From NCBI GenBank assembly GCA_045587025.1, contig JAZNBK010000041.1:40037-104036 (forward strand): a stretch of 64,000 nucleotides of DNA, in the 5' to 3' direction. This DNA comes from Eubacteriales bacterium. Lineage in GTDB: Bacteria; Bacillota; Clostridia; Oscillospirales; CAG-272. Under the pieces are notes generated by a model. The model worked only from the letters and a program-made list of their open reading frames with translations, was not told where the DNA came from and made no database searches. The position numbers and the translations under genes were made by a program. This document shows, one piece after another, positions 14,201 to 21,398 of the stretch (positions are counted from its first letter, which is position 1; each line of letters opens with the position of its first letter).

Positions 14201-15136
14201 GGCGATAAGCTCGCCCGTAATAACGCTTACGACAGGGCGCGCAAGCACGAAGCCCCTGATACGGTTCGCCAAAGCAAGCTTCTTATCGAACTTGTAACGT
14301 CCGACAGGCGCTAAATCGTAGCGCTTGGGATCAAAGAACAAGTTATTGACCAAAAGCTGAGCGCTCTCTATAATAGGCGGTTCGCCTGGACGAAGCTTTC
14401 TGTAAATTTCCTTAAGGGCTTCCTCTCCGAGAGTCGTATGTTCCGCTTCTGCATTTTTCGCACATTCGTCCTTTGAAAAGGTAGCGCGAAGTATTTCCTC
14501 GTCGCCGAACATTTCAATAATGCTTTCATCGGACTCCTCGCCGAGCGCACGAATCAGAACCGTTATCGGAATTTTTCTGGTTTTATCAATTTTTACGTAG
14601 AAAACGTTGCTTGCGTCTGTTTCATACTCAAGCCACGCTCCTCTATAAGGGATAACAGTGTTTTTATAGCTGTGATTTCCCGACTTATCCACCTCGCAGA
14701 GATAATATATACCGGGAGAACGAACAAGCTGAGAAACGATAACGCGCTCCGCACCGTTAATGACGAACGTTCCGTTTTCGGTCATAAGAGGGAAATTGCC
14801 CATATAAATATCGGACTGCTTCAACTCTCCCGTCTCTTTATTCGTCAATCTTACAGACACTTTAAGCGGTGCTTCGTAGGTAGCGTCTCTTTCCTTGCAT
14901 TCCTCGACCGAGTATCTCGGCTTAGAGTCAATAGAAAAGTCAACAAAGTTGATTTCAAGGTTGCCTGAATAATCCACAATAGGAGAAACATCCTTAAGAA
15001 CCTCAAACATTCCCTCTTCTAAAAACCACTTAAATGACTTTTTCTGAACCTCAATAAGATTTGGCATATCAAGCGCTTCATCAATCTTAGAAAAACTCAT
15101 TCTAACATTAGTGCCAAGCTTTTGGGGTTTTAGCAT
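11249..15136 (-). CDS. rpoB: DNA-directed RNA polymerase subunit beta
   Basis: The track ORF starts at TTG 15169. ATG 15136 is preceded by GGAGTGG (15144-15150) and gives [18 protein letters not shown]. Motifs [15 protein letters not shown] and PSRMNIGQV. Long acidic C-terminal tail. Confidence 0.98.
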
Positions 15137-15214
15137 AGTAGAACCACTCCATTCCAATAAATTTTTCAAAAATAAATACGTACCCTATTTACACGAATTT
15201 CGACAAGCAACGAA

Positions 15215-15258
15215 ACATAATTTACACAAATTTTACATAAGTTTTACATAAGTTTTAC
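15215..15258. repeat. Four tandem 11-bp units in the rpoB 5' leader
   Basis: Plus-strand units are acataatttac, acaaattttac, ataagttttac and ataagttttac. Each ends in tac, at 15225, 15236, 15247 and 15258, so the period is exactly 11 nt. Confidence 0.9.
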
Positions 15259-15321
15259 TCTTGAACAAACTATGAACGAAATGAAAAATTCGCAAAATAG
15301 GCGAGTATAATGCAATTTAGT

Positions 15322-15350
15322 ATTGTATCACAAATATTACCATTTGTCAA
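15322..15350 (-). promoter_or_regulatory. sigmaA-type promoter of rpoBC
   Basis: The minus strand reads TTGACA (15350-15345), a 17-nt spacer, then TACAAT (15327-15322). An AT-rich UP-like region lies upstream. The leader is ~180 nt. Confidence 0.65.
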
Positions 15351-15581
15351 GCATTTTCAAATAATTTGTAAAAAAATATTTTTTAGGCAATTAAACCAAC
15401 CAAAAAAAGAAAAAATATGCAAAATACACAAACAAATGCGCTGTTAAAATGAATTTTTAATATCAGAACTGTATTTGCTTCAAAAAAAAGAAATAAAAAA
15501 TGACGTTCCCCCACGTTAATTGAGGAAACGCCGTTTGTTTAATATTTGTTAATTTTTAAAAAACGCATAGGTTTTACGGTT

Positions 15582-16265
15582 TCACATAAACAGGCAGAGC
15601 AGAATAGGCAAGAAAATCGCAGGAATTAAATTCGCCGTACGAATTTTGGTAACGCCGAGCATATTAAGACCTATTGCGACAATCACCAAAGATCCGACAC
15701 AGGAAATTTCATTCATCATTGTGGGAGGCAGATGCGTGAGAAACAGCAGGGCAAACAAGGATATTGAGCCCTGATATACAAGCAAGGCAAGCGAGGAAAA
15801 GGCGCATCCTATACCCATGGTACTCGCCATTATAAGACAGGAAATCATATCTATTACTGCCTTTGCAAGTATAGTATCAGGGTTCCCCATAGCGTCCTCA
15901 ATAGCTCCTACTATCGCCATTGAGCCAACGCAGAAAAGAAGCGTACAGCTCACAAAGCCCTCGGCGACAGAAACGCTTTCATCGTTATGCTTCACCTTGG
16001 ACTGAAGGAAGTCGCCCAACCTGTTCACGTATTTCTCTATATTTATAAGCTCGCCTATAAGCGCGCCAACGCCGAGAGAGATAATAGCTATCAGAACGTT
16101 CTCTCCTTCAAGCGCGCCCGAAACGCCTATGAAAAATACGCAAAGCGCCATACCGTGTAATATTGTTTGGCTCACTCTTTGGGGTATTCCCTTTTTAAGA
16201 CGCGAACCGACAATGCCTGCTATCGCCACCAAGGCGGCGTTCACAAGCGTTCCAAGCATAAACAT
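15582..16265 (-). CDS. DUF554-family membrane protein
   Basis: 227 aa with about 6-7 TM segments. The N-terminus MFMLGTLVNAALVAIAGIVGSRLKKGIP is typical of the YdfK/YqgA (DUF554) family as I recall it. RBS agagga lies 6 nt before the ATG. Confidence 0.75.
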   Translation of the reverse strand: MFMLGTLVNAALVAIAGIVGSRLKKGIPQRVSQTILHGMALCVFFIGVSGALEGENVLIAIISLGVGALIGELINIEKYVNRLGDFLQSKVKHNDESVSVAEGFVSCTLLFCVGSMAIVGAIEDAMGNPDTILAKAVIDMISCLIMASTMGIGCAFSSLALLVYQGSISLFALLFLTHLPPTMMNEISCVGSLVIVAIGLNMLGVTKIRTANLIPAIFLPILLCLFM

Positions 16266-16355: not shown

Positions 16356-17456
16356 TTAGAATTTTATCTTTTCCTTCAATATTTTTACGATTTGAGAAGA
16401 AACTCTGCCGTCGCCGTAGGAATACGCAGACGAGCGCATTTTAATATATTCTTCCCTGCTTTCAATGAGGCGTTTCGTATTAATATAAATCTCATCTGTT
16501 TCCGTACCGACCAGCTTCATAATTCCGCTCATACATCCCTCGCTCCGCTCCGTAGTATCTCGCATAATAAGCATAGGCACTCCGAGCGTTGCCGCCTCCT
16601 CCTGTATCCCTCCGCTATCACTCAAAACGAGAAACGATTTGGACAAAACGTTTTGAAAGTCATACACCGACATTGGCTCTGACAGAATTACGTTTTCAAC
16701 ACCCGAAAGATTTGGAACTATCAAAGAGCGAACGGCAGGATTAGGATGCATCGGGCAAATAATTTTCAAGCTCGGATATTCGGCGGCTATACGCCTCACC
16801 GCTAAACACATATTCAAAATCGGCCTTCCTATATTTTCCCTTCTGTGAGCGGTAAAGAGTATTATCTTTTTGCCCTTTTCCAGAAGCGCGTTTTTATAGG
16901 ATGCCGTTACCGTATAACGCAAGGCGTCCGTCACCGTGTTCCCTACGACGAAAATATTTTCTTCCTTTTTTCTTAATGATATTAAATTATCTTTGGCGGC
17001 AATAGTTGGCGCAAAGCAATAGTCGGCAATCAGATCTATCGCCGCCCTGTTCCATTCCTCAGGGAAAGGCGAATTTACGTCAAACGAACGAAGCCCCGCT
17101 TCTATATGAACGATAGGTATTTTTTGGTAGAATGCAGCCAAGGCAGACGCAAATGCAGTGAGGGTATCTCCGTGAACGATTACAATTTTGGGATTTACTG
17201 TTAAAATCACCTCTGCATAGGCAAGCAGAGCGTTCGCCGTCAGATTTGTAATATCGCTTTTCCCCTCGCAAATCCTCAGATTTTTATCAGGGATTATTTT
17301 AAAAAAGTCGAGGACGTCGTCTGCAAGCGTACTATGCTGCCCCGAATGACATACGTAAAGAGAAAATCCGCTCTCCTTTTTCAATTCGATAATCAACGGG
17401 GCTAACTTTATTGCTTCAGGACGCGTACCAAAGGACACAAATATTTTTTCACTCAT
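16356..17456 (-). CDS. wecB: UDP-N-acetylglucosamine 2-epimerase (non-hydrolysing)
   Basis: 366 aa. FGTRPEAIKLAPL, HSGQH, VHGDT, HIEAGLRSF...PFPEEWNR. Confidence 0.9.
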   Translation of the reverse strand: MSEKIFVSFGTRPEAIKLAPLIIELKKESGFSLYVCHSGQHSTLADDVLDFFKIIPDKNLRICEGKSDITNLTANALLAYAEVILTVNPKIVIVHGDTLTAFASALAAFYQKIPIVHIEAGLRSFDVNSPFPEEWNRAAIDLIADYCFAPTIAAKDNLISLRKKEENIFVVGNTVTDALRYTVTASYKNALLEKGKKIILFTAHRRENIGRPILNMCLAVRRIAAEYPSLKIICPMHPNPAVRSLIVPNLSGVENVILSEPMSVYDFQNVLSKSFLVLSDSGGIQEEAATLGVPMLIMRDTTERSEGCMSGIMKLVGTETDEIYINTKRLIESREEYIKMRSSAYSYGDGRVSSQIVKILKEKIKF

Positions 17457-17570
17457 CGTCGCTCTCCTTTCATCTTAATATATGAAAGGAATAAACAAAA
17501 AAATTACCGAAAAGCCCTCTGTCATCAAAGGAAAGAATTCGCTTTCTTGTAAAAAACTTAAAATTTTTAG

Positions 17571-17598
17571 TTGATTTTTATATAATATATGGTATAAT
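17571..17598 (+). promoter_or_regulatory. Promoter of amidase gene
   Basis: TTGATT (17571-17576), a 16-nt spacer, then TGgTATAAT (TATAAT 17593-17598). Confidence 0.5.
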
Positions 17599-17635
17599 TA
17601 AATGTATTCATATTGCTTTAAATAACGGAGTTTTA

Positions 17636-19642
17636 ATGAAAAAACTATTATTTTTATTGCTTTTTTTAATGCTTTTTCTAACGGGCTGCGGCTTCAACGC
17701 AGAAAACGTTATATTTGAAGATGCGGAATTTATATATGACGGCACCGAAAAAAGCATTTTTTGCAAATCTAAAATTCCCGAAAACATAAATTTAATATAT
17801 GAAAACAACTCTGCGACAGAGGCGGGAAGCTACACTACGTTGCTTTCCATATACGATAAAGACGGAGAGCTTTTAGCCGAAAAGAGCGCCACTCTTACGA
17901 TAAAAAAAGCCACCTACGACATGAGCTCCGTTACATTTGAAAGCAAAGAGGTTTCATACAACGGAAAAGAGCATACCATTTCTGTTTCTTCTCTTCTGCC
18001 CGAGGGAGTGTCGGTTTCTTATTCGCAAAATTCCTACAAAAACGCAGGCACATACACCGTTACCGCCTACTTTTCCGGTGATGAAAAAAACTACGAAAAA
18101 ATACCAAACATGTCCGCCGTTTTGACTATTCTGCCGATAGAGCCGAACCCTACATTCACCCTGCAAAACAGCTTTTTGCACTCGGCTTCAATTCCCGATT
18201 TGAAATCAGATATTGAAGGCAAGGCGGTCTTGGGAGAGAACCAATCGCTTGTACCGGGAACAAACGTATATTACTTCGATTTTTATCCAAAAAGCACTAA
18301 CTACAAAACGAAATTCGACATCCCGATTTCATTGACGGTAAAGTCATCGGTCAATTACATATCCGATAATTACAGCGTAGTAGAATACGTAGATTACGGA
18401 AAAACCGTCAAAAGCGTTTCTCTCTCGACCTACGAAAAGGATAACACTCTAAAGATTTTTTCACACTGGTCTAAAACGCAAAACGGCGCGCCTTTCGATT
18501 TTTCATCTCCCATTTATTCAGACCTGTCGTTATACGGAGTGTTTAAAACAGAAGCAAAAAAATATGTTAATCTGCATCACTCCGAATCAAACGTCAAGCG
18601 CTTCGGATACTATTCATATCTTTTTCCGGCAAAATTACCTGAGATAAACGATAATCTTTTTCTTGGATGGTATAAAGAACCGTCTTATTACGCAGAAAAG
18701 GTCGTCGCCCTTAGTGATGCAAGCATTAGCGATTTGTACGCTATGTATATTCCGAAGGTAATTCTTAACGAAAACGAGAAGCTGTGGGCGCCAATCAAAG
18801 ACGACTCGCCTAAAACGACCGCAACGGAAGATCTACTCACAAGCGCTTTAACAGATCTCCACCTGCAATTCATAAAAAATCATTCTCTTTCCACAGACGA
18901 ATATTTTTGCTATCTCAAAAACCTAAGTGACAAGCATCTGTTCATAACGAAAGGCGATAGTGAATATGAAATATATCACTTGGAATATTCGCCCTCTATC
19001 CAAATTCCAGACGAAGAGAGCGTAACTGTATTCGGAGATGAGACAAGGGGGCTTATCGTCACTGTAAAAAGAGATATTACGGCAAGGGATTTGGGCATTC
19101 TTATCTGCCTTGACGCAGGGCACGGAGGCAAAGACCCCGGAGCAGTTTCGGGACAAATTCGCGAGGCGGACATTGCCCTTTCGGTCATAAAGCTTCTTGC
19201 CGAAAAATGCGAGAGACAGGGCTTTTCCGTCCTGCTTACAAGAAGCTCTGACGTCTTTGTTGAGCTTATAGACAGATGCAAAATAGCTAATAAAGCAAAC
19301 TCCGACATTTTCGTTTCCGTCCACTGTAATTCTGCTACGAATTCAATAGCAAACGGCACTGAGGTCTATTACGCCTATGGCACAAAAAGCCAACTGCTCG
19401 CCTATAGCGTATACAACAAAATGATAAGCGCGGTCCCTCTGACGGACAGGGGGGTAAAAACTCAAAACTATACGGTAATAAAGGATACGAATATGCCCGC
19501 AATTCTATGCGAGCTCGCGTTCATTTCAAACAGAAACGACCTTTTGGTTCTCGCCGATCCAGACAGCCAAGAAAAGTGGGCAGAGGCGATCTGCAAAGGC
19601 ATCTGCTCCTATTACGGGGTTCCTTATCTGGAATTTGAATAA
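17636..19642 (+). CDS. Lipoprotein N-acetylmuramoyl-L-alanine amidase (Amidase_3 type) with repeat-domain N-terminal region
   Basis: 668 aa. Signal peptide plus lipobox (LFLTGCG). Two ~90-aa internal repeats (YDGTEKS..AGSYT..LTIKKA and YNGKEHT..AGTYT..LTILPI). Two repeat-like segments (FSHWSKTQNGAPFDF...LYGVF and FLGWYKEPSYY...LYAMY). C-terminal amidase core (CLDAGHGGKDPGAV, VSVHCNS, GTEVYY, CELAFISN). Confidence 0.85.
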   Translation: MKKLLFLLLFLMLFLTGCGFNAENVIFEDAEFIYDGTEKSIFCKSKIPENINLIYENNSATEAGSYTTLLSIYDKDGELLAEKSATLTIKKATYDMSSVTFESKEVSYNGKEHTISVSSLLPEGVSVSYSQNSYKNAGTYTVTAYFSGDEKNYEKIPNMSAVLTILPIEPNPTFTLQNSFLHSASIPDLKSDIEGKAVLGENQSLVPGTNVYYFDFYPKSTNYKTKFDIPISLTVKSSVNYISDNYSVVEYVDYGKTVKSVSLSTYEKDNTLKIFSHWSKTQNGAPFDFSSPIYSDLSLYGVFKTEAKKYVNLHHSESNVKRFGYYSYLFPAKLPEINDNLFLGWYKEPSYYAEKVVALSDASISDLYAMYIPKVILNENEKLWAPIKDDSPKTTATEDLLTSALTDLHLQFIKNHSLSTDEYFCYLKNLSDKHLFITKGDSEYEIYHLEYSPSIQIPDEESVTVFGDETRGLIVTVKRDITARDLGILICLDAGHGGKDPGAVSGQIREADIALSVIKLLAEKCERQGFSVLLTRSSDVFVELIDRCKIANKANSDIFVSVHCNSATNSIANGTEVYYAYGTKSQLLAYSVYNKMISAVPLTDRGVKTQNYTVIKDTNMPAILCELAFISNRNDLLVLADPDSQEKWAEAICKGICSYYGVPYLEFE

Positions 19643-19680
19643 GCGCATTACAAATTAATTTTCTCATCAATAAAAGCAAA

Positions 19681-19712
19681 AAGGAAATCTCGCAAAAGAT
19701 TTCCTTTTTTTG
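19681..19712 (+). terminator. Amidase gene intrinsic terminator
   Basis: aaggaaatct (19681-19690) pairs with agatttcctt (19697-19706), followed by a T-run to 19711. Confidence 0.85.
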
Positions 19713-19724
19713 TTGTATAAGGAT

Positions 19725-19754
19725 ACAGCCAGCGCCGATCAAGGCACTGGCTGT
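19725..19754. terminator. Second GC-rich hairpin in the convergent gap
   Basis: acagccag (19725-19732) pairs with ctggctgt (19747-19754), with 3 further inner pairs. On the + strand it is followed by tatttgtt. It could serve the 417-aa gene (stop 19780) from the minus side, but there is no U-tract there. Confidence 0.4.
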
Positions 19755-19779
19755 TATTTGTTAAATCAGATACAAATTA

Positions 19780-21033
19780 TTATTCGTCTTCCTTTTTGCT
19801 AAGATATGAAAAATCACGCAAATCAATGGTTTCGCCATCCACAGTTATCTTTTTACCATTTTTCCAAGAAATAGAGCTTTTTACCGGAATTTTAGTAATG
19901 CGTGGGTTTTCGTCAATCTTAACGTCAGATTTGATAAATGTATTTTTACCTAATGCAACGTGATACCCATCTCTCTTCTCGTCATTTGAAATGTCACGTT
20001 CAACATTCCATTTAGGTTGTTTCTTCTTCGTAATGTGAGCAATACAGCACCATAAAGCAGATTTCAATAAAAACGGCACTTCGAATTCGCATCTGCTTCG
20101 ATTATCCCGTTGATTACCTTCTAACCCGGAAAATATGTAGAGATGTTCAATGTTGTCTGGAAAATGCTTTAAGATAGTATCGCCGCTTACTAAAAAATAG
20201 CAATCGCCGGTAAGTTCAAGCGCTTTGTTTACAAATTCAACTAACAAGCAAAAAGGCAAATTACCAACAATATATTTCGTTTCTGCCGGCAAATCCTTTT
20301 TGTCAAACGCTAAGAAATCCTGTTCTTTGACTTTTTTTGTCGTCGGCAAAATATCAATCGACATCCCCTTGCCATCCAACCATCGGCCGTCAGAGGCGCA
20401 AGGGTCGAGACACTTATCTTTGTCAAGTTTCGTTATGTTAAAGAACTGTTCAATAACATCTTTTGGCGTGAGCCATAGATCAATAAATTCAATTTTTTCA
20501 GAGCACAAGGCGTCACGAGCCTGTTTTGAACCGCTTGCTTTATAACCGCTTTTGGTAATTTTTTCATTTTCCTCAATTGTGATAATATCCAATGACTGCT
20601 GGTTTAGGATATCTCTATATTCGCTAACATCTGCCGTTGGATCATCTTCGCACAAATCAAACATTTTTTTAAGCACTGCCTTGTTTGGCATATTATGATC
20701 CGCTGTTACGTATTGTCCAAGAGCATGGGCAGTTTCAACGTCTTTCGCATTTGAAGAGAAAAAGTTTTTATACTTTTTCCTTAGTTGTGTCGGCGTAAGA
20801 ATGAAATAATCATAAGGAAGAACCTCGTGATCCAAGCATACCTGAAGCGCATCCTTTGAAATTCTGATATTATTAATGGGGCGAGGCATTAGCAGCCTTG
20901 TCATAATACCGCCGCTGTTTCCTCCCCCACGAAGAATTTCTTTTTTCGCAGAAGGATCGTTGTGAGCTACAATGATACATTCCCTGCACGCCTCGGCTAA
21001 ACCTTTTGTAATTCTGTTTATATTGTTGTTCAT
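19780..21033 (-). CDS. Hypothetical fusion protein: unknown N-terminal domain plus class-I SAM methyltransferase-like core (TaqI/gamma-type adenine-MTase-like motifs)
   Basis: 417 aa. Residues 188-219 read LTPKDVIEQFFNITKLDKDKCLDPCASDGRWL (TP...(L)DPxxxxGxW(L), compare M.TaqI EPACAHGPFL from memory). SIDILP and EQDFL follow, then IVGNLPF (20251-20271) in the position of the (N/D)PP(Y/F) motif. I do not recognise the N-terminal ~185 aa or the C-terminal ~90 aa. RBS aggag lies 7 nt before the ATG. Composition is AT-rich. Confidence 0.6.
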   Translation of the reverse strand: MNNNINRITKGLAEACRECIIVAHNDPSAKKEILRGGGNSGGIMTRLLMPRPINNIRISKDALQVCLDHEVLPYDYFILTPTQLRKKYKNFFSSNAKDVETAHALGQYVTADHNMPNKAVLKKMFDLCEDDPTADVSEYRDILNQQSLDIITIEENEKITKSGYKASGSKQARDALCSEKIEFIDLWLTPKDVIEQFFNITKLDKDKCLDPCASDGRWLDGKGMSIDILPTTKKVKEQDFLAFDKKDLPAETKYIVGNLPFCLLVEFVNKALELTGDCYFLVSGDTILKHFPDNIEHLYIFSGLEGNQRDNRSRCEFEVPFLLKSALWCCIAHITKKKQPKWNVERDISNDEKRDGYHVALGKNTFIKSDVKIDENPRITKIPVKSSISWKNGKKITVDGETIDLRDFSYLSKKEDE

Positions 21034-21110
21034 ATAGAAACTCCTATAGATCTAATTGCTTTGCGTCTTAGCATCTAAGGTCCTTTTTCTCCAAGCTTTC
21101 TCTCGTTTTC

Positions 21111-21398
21111 TTAGTTTGCAGATCTTTTTACTGACCTAAGCTCCGCCTTGAGCGCTTTTATTTTCTCTTTTCTTTGCTTTTTTATTTTCTTTGAAGCTGA
21201 AAAGGCAGATAAGGTACACAAAGCAAGTAAAAGCCAGACGATTATTTTCAAAATATCAAAATCAAAACTTCCCTTTGTCGCAAAATGAAAAACCGGTTCT
21301 TTCGCTTCCTTGTTTTTAAAAAGCGACGCGGAAAAATCATGCTTTTCCGAAATTACAGGACGAAGACCGTCTGTTATACATTTGATTTTTTCGTACAT
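21111..21398 (-). CDS. Hypothetical small single-pass membrane protein
   Basis: 95 aa. One TM segment (ILKIIVWLLLALCTLSAFSA) followed by a Lys/Arg-rich helix (KKIKKQRKEKIKALKAELRSVKR). RBS ggaaaggaag. It lies 77 nt upstream of the 417-aa gene on the same strand. Confidence 0.55.
   Translation of the reverse strand: MYEKIKCITDGLRPVISEKHDFSASLFKNKEAKEPVFHFATKGSFDFDILKIIVWLLLALCTLSAFSASKKIKKQRKEKIKALKAELRSVKRSAN

Follow-up and report, generated by a model that had tools for sequence, protein, structure and literature searches.

Restriction-modification (R-M) enzymes of Types IIG and IIL are roughly 900-1000 aa long. In MmeI, an N-terminal endonuclease is followed by a central methyltransferase (MTase) and a C-terminal recognition domain (PMC2582602); MmeI and BpuSI both combine, in a single chain, an effector, a gamma-class adenine MTase of the NPP[YF] type, and C-terminal recognition (PMC2582602, PMC3185434). 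Here, we describe a 417-aa protein, encoded in a gut Clostridia genome, that would have the same module order in one chain, given the putative functions of its first and last modules. As with the Type IIG and IIL enzymes, its gene is solitary, patchily distributed, and horizontally transferred. It differs from them in its length, in having no helical spacer, in its tiny putative recognition element, and in finding no match to the PADLOC model REase_MTase_IIG. In addition, its N-terminal domain (N-domain), unlike that of MmeI or BpuSI, is not of the PD-(D/E)xK type and matches no solved fold.

M.TaqI, Eco57I, and the N6_Mtase family share with this protein a class-I Rossmann fold and the motif order TP (motif X), D/E-P-x-C-x-x-G (I), an acidic motif II, DFL (III), and N-x-P-F (IV). 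However, its core is only ~155 aa and its putative recognition domain <80 aa, its motif IV is mostly N[LI]PF, its family carries an extra invariant motif (EGNQxDxRSR), and no Pfam N6_Mtase, Eco57I, or TaqI-like model matches it at E<=1. KsgA, Erm, and Dim1 provide the best structural matches in the PDB, and N-[LI]-P-[FY], the form that motif IV takes in KsgA and Erm, is common to both sides. Unlike these enzymes, our protein has a different motif I and no helical C-domain, it scores far under the ksgA cut-off, and its gene lacks the conserved synteny of a housekeeping gene (0/40 relatives).

True homology, covering the core, the C-terminal tail (C-tail), and a shared motif set, links the protein to PHROG 799 and to phage MTases of ~220 aa (P0115, P0119, P0123). 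The phage enzymes have the canonical NPPF and either lack the N-domain or have it as a separate neighbouring gene (L050). Similarly, the BFVD entry A0A5B9N4L3, from Aeromonas phage 2L372X, matches our structural model with a TM-score of 0.64 (E=1e-7). As far as could be determined, there is no characterised member of this ~220-aa group. Finally, the R.PabI-type "restriction glycosylases" show by precedent that a restriction effector can be a small protein of ~200 aa that partners an adenine methylase and has a fold and chemistry not seen before. The N-domain differs from R.PabI in showing no similarity to it in sequence or fold; a Foldseek search of the PDB, which would include the half-pipe fold, found nothing.

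The gene, its insertion site, and its distribution

The open reading frame (ORF) and all of the motifs quoted in a first-pass annotation, which had been made from the DNA letters alone, were recovered in place (Table 1). The full-length AF2 model of the product has a pLDDT of 90.6 and a pTM of 0.86. Across the 41 ORFs of the window (that is, the whole stretch of 64,000 nucleotides that was analysed) GC content is 44.4 +/- 2.6%, against 38.4% for this gene; its GC3 (37.3% vs 47.0 +/- 3.0%) is the lowest of the 41. The first-pass annotation had the direction right, and its hand estimate of ~36% GC was slightly low.

The neighbours of the gene are an Amidase_3 cell-wall amidase, a 95-aa membrane ORF, and trmB; as had been noted from the sequence, no restriction, specificity, or helicase gene adjoins the 417-aa ORF. 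A functional pairing with the upstream 95-aa membrane ORF was considered and rejected, because that ORF is native: the sister genome has it but lacks the methylase gene. The word "orphan," which had been applied to the gene, is appropriate in the sense that it has no partner gene, but not in the sense of an ORFan: ~100 full-length relatives (104 homologs) exist at 50-76% identity.

Table 1. Positions of the gene, its modules and motifs, and the features of the insertion site
Feature	Positions in window	Strand	Details
Whole gene	19780..21033	minus	ATG start, 417 aa plus stop codon, three modules; from ORF list and translation
N-domain, conserved alpha/beta module	20491..21033	minus	Residues 1-181; no PDB structural match
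GGGNSGG glycine-rich loop	20908..20928	minus	Residues 36-42
DHNMPN motif	20683..20700	minus	Residues 112-117
DIITIEEN motif	20566..20589	minus	Residues 149-156
Class-I methyltransferase core	20014..20481	minus	Residues 185-340; gamma-type order TP, motif I, II/III, IV
Motif I DPCASDGRW, putative SAM-binding loop	20380..20406	minus	Residues 210-218
Motif IV GNLPF, putative catalytic N-x-P-F	20251..20265	minus	Residues 257-261
Small beta-rich C-terminal module, putative minimal DNA-recognition element	19780..20013	minus	Residues 341-417, includes stop codon
Shine-Dalgarno AGGAG	21041..21045	minus	7 nt 5' of ATG, read from sequence
Hairpin	19725..19754	.	Directly 3' of gene, within inserted DNA; inverted repeat I4
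Inserted segment, approximate, ~1.4 kb	19717..21110	.	Comparison with sister genome G005
Native bidirectional terminator	19678..19709	.	Insertion site, outside the element

The inserted segment is bounded by the native bidirectional terminator and by the stop codon of the native 95-aa ORF. In the closest sister genome (G005) the empty site consists of ~60 bp with one bidirectional terminator. The terminator in the window has a 13-14-bp stem with a T-run after it on both strands, and the sister genome has an equivalent hairpin. The hairpin that belongs to the inserted DNA has arms of 12 nt with 92% complementarity. The borders of the segment are not transposon-like, with neither a target-site duplication nor a terminal inverted repeat.

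The gene is absent from 40 related genomes (24 of the same genus and 16 of the same order), and among 401 sampled genomes of the phylum the window's own copy stands alone. Indeed, the family is rare and patchy, with members in only 6 of ~185,000 species genomes. When two lineages are compared, the gene shows a divergence of 1.1%, whereas the flanking trmB and amidase genes differ by 8% and ~12%, respectively. The insertion site is different in each genome, and several of these sites are in R-M or defence islands. Most members of the family are chromosomal singletons in bacteria; others are carried on viral contigs, among them a subclade at ~50% identity. Searches with tblastn against cultured phages and against plasmids gave no match in either collection. 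Together, these data support the view that the gene is solitary and mobile, has a phage ancestry, and was horizontally acquired. Horizontal acquisition had already been suggested; the absence from all 40 relatives, the empty site in the sister genome, the low GC content, and the divergence of 1.1% against 8% bear it out. The comparison with sister genomes, which had been proposed as a check, also establishes that this is not a conserved syntenic housekeeping gene.

The methyltransferase core and the C-terminal tail

Residues 185-340 are a small class-I methyltransferase core with its motifs in gamma-class order. The segment LTPKDV...CLDPCASDGRWL occupies residues 188-219 (20377-20472), with LTP at 188-190, and is followed by SIDILP (225-230), EQDFL (237-241, with DFL at 239-241), and IVGNLPF (255-261; 20251-20271). 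The S-DI-P motif of the core thus lies between DPCASDGRW and DFL. These motifs, in the linear order X, I, II, III, IV, are invariant across 40 sequences. The TaqI-like order proposed in the first-pass annotation holds. In motif I the invariant residues are D210, C212, A213, D215, R217, and W218; in motif IV they are G257, N258, P260, and F261. The second position of the N-x-P-F tetrad is mostly not Pro among the homologs (NLPF 56, NIPF 37, NPPF 5, NVPF 3), and the NLPF of this protein, which had been singled out earlier, is a genuine variant of NPPF.

The core itself had been proposed from these motifs, and the confident AF2 model, the structural matches, and the profile matches all agree with it. 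In Foldseek searches with the model, every significant match in the PDB and in BFVD is a class-I MTase (probability 1.0). The best PDB matches are KsgA, Erm, and Dim1 (E=2e-4 to 1e-2), with HsdM and small MTases also found, and the best BFVD matches are small phage MTases. Residues 184-281 match PHROG 799, "DNA methyltransferase," at E=2e-8, and when the core of the window family is made into a profile, it retrieves the ~220-aa phage MTases with E-values of 1e-26 to 1e-34. Judged by these profile comparisons, the core belongs to the same family as PHROG 799 and the ~220-aa methylases of large-phage contigs. We consider it probable, and say so with good confidence, that the protein is a DNA adenine methylase.

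The whole protein matches no Pfam family at E<=1 (including PF02384, PF07669, and PF12950), no PADLOC family (including MTase_II and REase_MTase_IIG), and nothing in NCBIfam beyond a sub-threshold fragment of ksgA; PHROG 799 gives the only family match. A search of Pfam and REBASE had been suggested at the outset; no Pfam or REBASE-type model matches the protein. Sequence searches of the PDB (single-sequence and profile, with the full protein and both N-domain alignments) returned chance-level matches only. These were ERV1, caspase, interferon-gamma, and a Walker-B-like stretch of DnaA at E=0.16.

In the AF2 model the C-terminal module contains beta strands from residue 343 to 404. Its invariant residues are N350, D355, G356, H358, A360, G362, and N364, and an equivalent C-tail is carried by the 220-aa phage MTases.

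The N-domain and its methylase neighbours

The first-pass annotation left the N-terminal part of the protein unassigned; in our analysis it appears as a separate and conserved module that would partner adenine DNA methyltransferases. Modelled alone, the N-domain has a pLDDT of 90.4. Foldseek against the PDB gave no fold match (best E=1.8), and this includes the PD-(D/E)xK, HNH, GIY-YIG, PLD, and half-pipe nuclease folds. The domain likewise has no match in Pfam, NCBIfam, PHROGs, or PADLOC, and none to the restriction endonuclease models in PADLOC or NCBIfam.

What the domain does have is a signature: GGGxxGG, R-I-S, D-H-N-x-P-N, D-L-I-T-x-E-E-N, and R-D. The four segments picked out earlier (AHNDP, GGGNSGG, TADHNMPNKAV, and DIITIEENEK) are confirmed in the N-terminal half. 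Invariant in alignment A2 are G36-G38, G41, and G42 of the glycine-rich loop, D112, H113, N114, and N117 of DHNMPN, and D149, I151, E154, and E155 of DIITIEEN. In the stand-alone proteins described below, the loop reads GGGGNS, the H-N-P is invariant (alignment A3), and the equivalent of DIITIEEN is D-L-I-T-x-[EK]-[EQ]-[DN]. No conserved (D/E)xK was seen in either A2 or A3.

Several candidate identities were tried and rejected. It had been suggested that the N-domain be checked for a PD-(D/E)xK or HNH fold. Neither was seen: there is no fold match at all, the strands are separated by helices, and both a conserved (D/E)xK and a second His/Asn with a Cys pair are missing. A degenerate P-loop/Walker-B (GGGxxGG with hhhhEE) was rejected on the grounds that Foldseek finds no P-loop and that no strand precedes the Gly loop. 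A DNA mimic of the Ocr type was rejected on its pI of 7.6.

The N-domain is also encoded by stand-alone genes, as proteins of ~200 aa that fall into 58 clusters. The homology of the stand-alone and fused forms is clear from hhalign (99.5%, E=1e-22), and the stand-alone profile retrieves the window's own N-domain at E=5e-21. In each of the six independent loci examined (6/6), the stand-alone gene adjoins a gene of an adenine-MTase family, and in three of the four bacterial operons its start codon overlaps the upstream stop. One of these (L062) is an insertion that separates ackA from rpmF; in it the stop codon of the gene for a 524-aa Type II MTase overlaps, as TAATG, the start of the N-domain gene, whose product is 194 aa long. 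In a second (L064) the order is N6_Mtase, one unannotated gene, and the N-domain gene; in two more (L063 and L065) it is N6_Mtase, two unannotated genes, MT-A70, and the N-domain gene, and then PDC-S31 or Mrr. Two viral contigs (L050/L051; 117 and 232 kb) have the N-domain gene and the gene for a 220-aa NPPF MTase in convergent orientation, and the pair sits among the nucleotide-metabolism genes nrdD, nrdG, and tk. In L061 the N-domain gene stands in tandem 5' of a 344-aa NPPF MTase.

The neighbouring MTases thus belong to at least three families: N6_Mtase with NPPY, MT-A70 with DPPW, and the PHROG-799 type with NPPF. The partners in L050 and L061 match PHROG 799 at 1e-15 and 1e-16. The bacterial partners match models of Type II DNA MTases, which for the 520-aa enzymes is a full-length Type II model. 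The bacterial stand-alone operons lie in defence-type contexts (Mrr, PDC-S31, Fic, integrase), and both modules are found on large viral contigs of 69-255 kb.

Similarly informative is the way in which motifs decay among the 96 full-length fusions. All motifs are kept in 72, and in 8 the N-domain motifs are lost while the MTase is intact. The reverse, lost MTase motifs with the N-domain kept, is seen only in P0107, so that the asymmetry is one of regular-expression motif calls and a single MTase-dead case. P0107 lies 12 bp behind its paralog P0088, in which the MTase is intact and the N-domain degenerate. In this small sample, with six stand-alone loci, the R-M pattern is present: a putative effector linked to an MTase, and a methylase that outlives the putative effector but not the reverse. 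In our view it is highly likely that the N-domain serves adenine MTases as a dedicated partner module.

What the protein may do

Among the roles listed in the first-pass annotation, a fused R-M-like enzyme becomes the most interesting, since the N-domain partners adenine MTases. We propose that the core would methylate adenine N6 in DNA at a short motif, with recognition by the C-tail. The N-domain would be a nuclease- or glycosylase-like effector against unmethylated DNA; it would rely on the invariant His, Asp, Asn, Arg, and Glu, and would be targeted by the fused methylase and C-tail. The module order would then be that of Types IIG and IIL, namely effector, methylase, and recognition. The effector may be deployed as a subunit, often translationally coupled (in bacterial operons and large phages), or as a fusion (in the window family), and the gene, in a selfish or a defence role, would spread by entering the terminator regions that separate housekeeping genes.

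These statements are not all equally firm. The best reading, with chances that approach even, is that the 417-aa protein is a miniature single-chain R-M-like element with a new effector domain. That the N-domain is a restriction-type effector is a tentative assignment. In the boldest version the N-domain would belong to a class of restriction effectors not recognised before, with a new fold and working only with adenine DNA methyltransferases, and the 417-aa protein would be the smallest known self-contained R-M enzyme, a mobile selfish gene that inserts at terminators; we offer this as a speculative possibility.

Some observations speak against an effector. The unannotated proteins (~315, 375, and 390 aa) of the three- to five-gene operons could be the nuclease. 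For a specificity domain the C-tail is very small, and a fused nuclease of low specificity would endanger its host. Type IIG enzymes have loosely tethered nuclease domains, whereas the full-length model here is compact. The main rival would be an orphan phage-derived DNA adenine methyltransferase, serving anti-restriction or epigenetic ends, in which the N-domain is a benign accessory, such as a clamp that binds DNA, a module for oligomerisation or activation, or a domain that handles a cofactor. The compact model (pTM 0.86) suits this rival, as do the lack of a separate nuclease gene nearby and of a nuclease fold match, the eight lineages that function with a decayed N-domain, and an MTase core family that is typical of large phages, with its ~50%-identity subclade on viral contigs. 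Similarly, where the MTase/N-domain pair adjoins nrdD, nrdG, and tk on the one pair of viral contigs, DNA modification or anti-restriction fits better than restriction. However, an accessory acting in cis leaves unexplained the tandem of P0088, with a live MTase and a dead N-domain, and P0107, with the reverse. It also sits poorly with an N-domain that pairs with three unrelated MTase families, including 520-aa enzymes that match a Type II model, with bacterial operons beside Mrr, PDC-S31, Fic, and integrase genes, and with invariant His, Asp, Asn, Glu, Arg, and Gln residues that look catalytic rather than structural. On balance we regard the orphan methylase as somewhat unlikely.

There are two further alternatives. 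The large viral contigs that carry both modules, the pair within a nucleotide-metabolism cluster, and an N-domain that looks enzymatic yet defies classification could all be accommodated if the core and the N-domain were two steps of a large-phage pathway of DNA base hypermodification, taking adenine beyond methylation, which bacteria captured secondarily. We find this improbable: the family consists mostly of bacterial chromosomal singletons, the bacterial operons pair the N-domain with genes matching ordinary Type II MTase models, and further modification genes (kinases, transferases, glycosylases) are not consistently nearby. More improbable still is a KsgA/Erm-type enzyme that methylates adenine N6 in rRNA or tRNA, and which may be mobile and either resistance-like or translation-modifying, although KsgA, Erm, and Dim1 head the PDB matches, the ksgA model gives a weak match, the motif IV form is shared, and Erm genes are mobile too. 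The match to the ksgA model (TIGR00755) covers residues 232-274 only, at E=0.045 and 13 bits against a cut-off of 171. DPCxxDGRW after TP is the gamma-class pattern of DNA enzymes and not GxGxG, and the C-terminal module is beta-rich, whereas the RNA-binding domain of KsgA and Erm is helical. In addition, relatives have NPPF and match the phage "DNA methyltransferase" PHROGs, the partners of the N-domain are all of adenine-MTase families with the bacterial ones matching Type II DNA MTase models, and several copies lie in R-M islands. The first-pass annotation had left RNA as a possible target, a reading that weakens given that DNA methylases, phages, and R-M-type loci account for all of the genomic associations.

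To return to the R-M-like reading, its consequences depend on the N-domain. If this is a restriction-type effector, it would add a new catalytic fold to the short list of restriction-enzyme folds. It would also define a set of unannotated R-M-like operons, with N6_Mtase and the N-domain as their core and MT-A70 and two unannotated genes as optional members. In addition, a single-chain enzyme of 417 aa, less than half the size of the MmeI type, would be attractive for engineering. If it is not an effector, the N-domain would still represent an uncharacterised domain family whose link to adenine methylation is strict, in gut Firmicutes and Mollicutes-like bacteria as well as in large phages, and the protein a member of a family of mini-methylases that is invisible to Pfam and would be left unassigned by methylome studies of gut metagenomes.

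A low-GC gene inserted beside a native terminator

The fusion gene encodes an N-terminal domain (N-domain, residues 1-181), a methyltransferase (MTase) core (185-340) and a C-terminal tail (341-417) that is a putative recognition element. The first-pass annotation described the ORF, its motifs, composition and neighbours accurately, and on translation every motif it quoted was found where it had been placed in the 417-aa ORF. The GC content is 38.4%, against 44.4 ± 2.6% for the 41 ORFs of the window, and the GC3 (37.3% versus 47.0 ± 3.0%) is the lowest among them. The gene is flanked by a convergent Amidase_3 cell-wall amidase, a 95-aa membrane ORF, and trmB. The composition profile also contains short, very-low-GC stretches (27-29%) at 15000-15600 and 17400-17800, which are probably intergenic or promoter regions.

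In G005, the closest sister genome (70% identity in TrmB), the epimerase and amidase genes are followed by ~60 bp containing a single bidirectional terminator, then by a small ORF and trmB. The extra DNA of the window is delimited in the table; no target-site duplication, terminal inverted repeat or recombinase was found at this insertion. The membrane ORF (21111-21398, minus strand) upstream of the fusion gene is native, with a 106-aa homolog between trmB and the amidase in G005. If this ORF is co-transcribed with the fusion gene, the insertion is the cause, and we rejected a functional pairing of the ORF with the methylase because G005 has the homolog and no methylase gene.

Features around the fusion gene (window positions) and loci of stand-alone N-domain genes in other genomes or contigs (L numbers; positions on each locus)
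Feature or locus	Position	Strand	Description
Fusion-gene ORF	19780-21033	minus	417 aa encoded
Ribosome-binding site AGGAG	7 nt before ATG of fusion gene		
Hairpin	just downstream of fusion gene		
Native terminator	19678-19709		equivalent to that of G005, kept in window
Extra DNA versus G005	roughly 19717-21110		~1.4 kb; sole gene is the fusion gene
L062			524-aa NPPY enzyme (full-length Type II MTase model match, E=7e-46), then N-domain gene
L064			N6_Mtase, 390-aa unknown gene, then N-domain gene
L063, L065	1-6710, 1-5552		NPPY N6_Mtase, ~316-aa gene, ~374-aa gene, MT-A70, N-domain gene
L050/L051	1089-5197 (L050)		viral contigs of 117 and 232 kb, same region on both; 220-aa NPPF mini-methylase, N-domain gene
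L061			112-kb viral contig; N-domain gene in tandem before 344-aa NPPF methylase

A goat-gut contig has the same arrangement around the fusion gene. Here, the gene differs from that of the window at 14 of 1254 nt (1.1%), versus 71 of 886 nt (8.0%) for the trmB segment and ~12% for the amidase segment. Of these 14 differences, only 4 alter the protein sequence, so synonymous divergence is roughly tenfold below that of the flanks; protein identity is 99.0% for the fusion, 97.4% for an MreB-like protein, and 94.5% for RecD2. On these comparisons, the gene was exchanged between the two lineages long after their split and, given also the empty site in G005 and the low GC, the horizontal origin proposed in the first-pass annotation stands. 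The middle part of the amidase (18600-19540, plus strand) is ~12% diverged from the goat-gut strain, more than trmB and far more than the fusion gene; this region evolves fast, in a protein that is probably located at the cell surface.

Other copies of the fusion gene occupy unrelated sites: ftsK/dipeptidase, typA/dnaB, cotJ/OAD, next to an NgoMIV-type restriction-modification (R-M) pair, within a GmrSD/Type III island, and next to EcoRI-like methylases. A search of 5.8 billion proteins returned 104 relatives, mostly full-length and 50-76% identical, all without annotation. The family is small, for only 70 matches came from 1.84 billion cluster representatives searched with a profile. The gene was found in none of the 24 same-genus and 16 same-order genomes searched, and in only 6 of ~185,000 species representatives: gut Clostridia/Acutalibacteraceae MAGs, a “Mycoplasma sp.” MAG, and a 3-kb contig binned as “Alphaproteobacteria.” The family is rare, patchy and mobile, yet no ORFan; with 104 relatives, the earlier “orphan” label is weak.

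IMG/VR viral contigs of 33 and 78 kb carry a subclade of ~50% identity. Copies in two “Mycoplasma sp.” MAGs of very low GC (22-24%; L003:8001-9257 and L031:6001-7104) have six in-frame TGA codons each, with TGA encoding invariant Trp residues, and so the hosts of the family include users of genetic code 4 besides Clostridia. In a horse-faeces MAG labelled “Alphaproteobacteria bacterium”, a 3.2-kb contig (L023, JAKSUO010000141.1) carries a copy with 72% identity; since all other hosts are Firmicutes or Mollicutes-like, this label is probably a binning artefact. Two short metagenomic copies, L035:603-1837 and L040:222-1456, have early stops other than TGA (codon 43 and codon 301); each is either a pseudogene or the result of an assembly error.

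The methyltransferase half

An AlphaFold model of the full protein (40-sequence alignment) reached a pLDDT of 90.6 and a pTM of 0.86, and its significant Foldseek matches were class-I methyltransferases without exception. These comprised KsgA/Erm/Dim1, a Type I HsdM and small RNA MTases in the PDB, and, in BFVD, small phage proteins (best TM 0.64, E=1e-7) together with annotated phage DNA methyltransferases. On the MTase core the first-pass annotation was right, and its interpretation as a whole is partly supported. Residues 184-281 match PHROG 799, “DNA methyltransferase” (E=2e-8); Pfam, NCBIfam and PADLOC did not recognise the protein. The invariant motifs follow the gamma-class order (D-L-W-L-T-P, DPCASDGRW, S-x-D-I-x-P, DFL, V-G-N-x-P-F), and are followed by YFLV-x-GDT, an unusual invariant E-G-N-Q-x-D-x-R-S-R, and WCC. 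The NLPF variant noted in the first pass is genuine: motif IV is NLPF in 56 family members, NIPF in 37, canonical NPPF in 5 and NVPF in 3, so that NLPF is the norm alongside NIPF and interchanges with NPPF.

A profile of the MTase half retrieved ~220-aa proteins from viral contigs of 69-255 kb (E=1e-26 to 1e-34) with every core motif, canonical GNPPF and an identical type of short C-terminal tail. Core and tail (residues ~185-400) therefore belong to a mini-methylase family of large phages. In P0121, a 391-aa protein from the representatives search, a GNAT acetyltransferase domain is fused C-terminally to the mini-methylase core. The core is a Pfam-invisible new addition to a known enzyme type, and DNA m6A methylase activity is probable.

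The N-domain and its probable methyltransferase partners

The N-domain, left unassigned by the first-pass annotation, is the interesting part of the protein. Modelled alone (14 locus-derived sequences; pLDDT 90.4), it adopts an alpha/beta fold with three short strands. The invariant polar residues are G36-38, G41-42, R57, S59, K97, D112, H113, N114, N117, Q146, D149, E154, E155, and R173. Foldseek gave no PDB match (best E 1.8, TM ~0.2), sequence profiles gave only chance-level PDB matches, Pfam, NCBIfam, PHROGs and PADLOC gave none, and we found no literature on the family. It is a family not yet described, unmatched in the PDB and the four libraries searched.

The N-domain signature (GGGGNS, R-I-S, F-D-H-N-P-P-N-K, D-L-I-T-x-E-x-D, R-D) is also carried by 58 clusters of ~200-aa stand-alone proteins, homologous to the fused form with an hhalign probability of 99.5% (E=1e-22). 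At every readable locus, an adenine methyltransferase gene adjoins the N-domain gene (see table). In L062, the two genes overlap at a TAATG stop/start and sit between ackA and rpmF. The N-domain gene of L063/L065 also has a TAATG overlap; the MT-A70 there has a DPPW motif and matches a Type II MTase model (E=1e-54), no model of Pfam, PADLOC or NCBIfam recognised the ~316-aa or the ~374-aa protein, and PDC-S31/DUF2971 or Mrr lies downstream. This conserved five-gene operon is a candidate uncharacterised multi-gene R-M-like system. In L050/L051, the two genes are convergent, a few bp apart, and adjoin nrdD, a second NRDD-family ORF (possibly a split nrdD), and thymidine kinase (tk). The L061 methylase matches PHROG 799 (1e-16).

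Fusion, translational coupling or adjacency thus ties the N-domain to no fewer than three unrelated families of adenine MTases. The domain behaves as a dedicated functional partner of adenine methylation, and very probably serves adenine DNA MTases as a dedicated partner module.

Possible roles of the N-domain

Under R-M logic, the N-domain would act against DNA protected by the methylase, and three observations favour this. The minimal L062 cassette, set between housekeeping genes, resembles a classical Type II M+R pair. Motif loss is asymmetric: 72 of 96 full-length fusions keep all motifs, eight have lost N-domain motifs (Gly loop and/or DHN) with all MTase motifs kept, and only one (P0107) has lost MTase motifs I, IV and EGNQ with all N-domain motifs kept. 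P0107 lies 12 bp downstream of its paralog P0088, the two forming a tandem pair on a 7.4-kb phage-like contig (L066:356-2736). In P0088 the MTase is intact and the N-domain degenerate, with DYN in place of DHN and the Gly loop missing; a duplicated fusion seems to have subfunctionalised here, resolving into “M-like” and “R-like” proteins. In addition, the order of putative effector, gamma-MTase and small putative recognition tail parallels MmeI and BpuSI (PMC2582602, PMC3185434), and the patchy distribution, low GC, terminator insertion and defence-island residence of the fusion gene fit R-M cassettes. However, the N-domain is unlike any known nuclease, other unannotated genes of the larger operons could be the nuclease, phage copies lie among nucleotide-metabolism genes, the putative recognition tail is tiny, and the sample of stand-alone loci is small. 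Because of this counter-evidence, we propose a restriction effector only tentatively.

The main rival, a methylase of orphan or anti-restriction type whose N-domain is a harmless accessory, is somewhat less likely than a restriction effector, and a two-step DNA hypermodification pathway from large phages is highly improbable. Least probable is an RNA m6A methylase of the KsgA/Erm type, an option left open by the first-pass annotation: the ksgA model scores 13 bits on the 417-aa protein against a cut-off of 171, and the resemblance to KsgA is structural only. A decaying remnant is unlikely, as every motif is intact in a protein 99% conserved between lineages whose flanks are 8-12% apart. Taken as a whole, this is an R-M-like or methylase system with a partner module of no known family.
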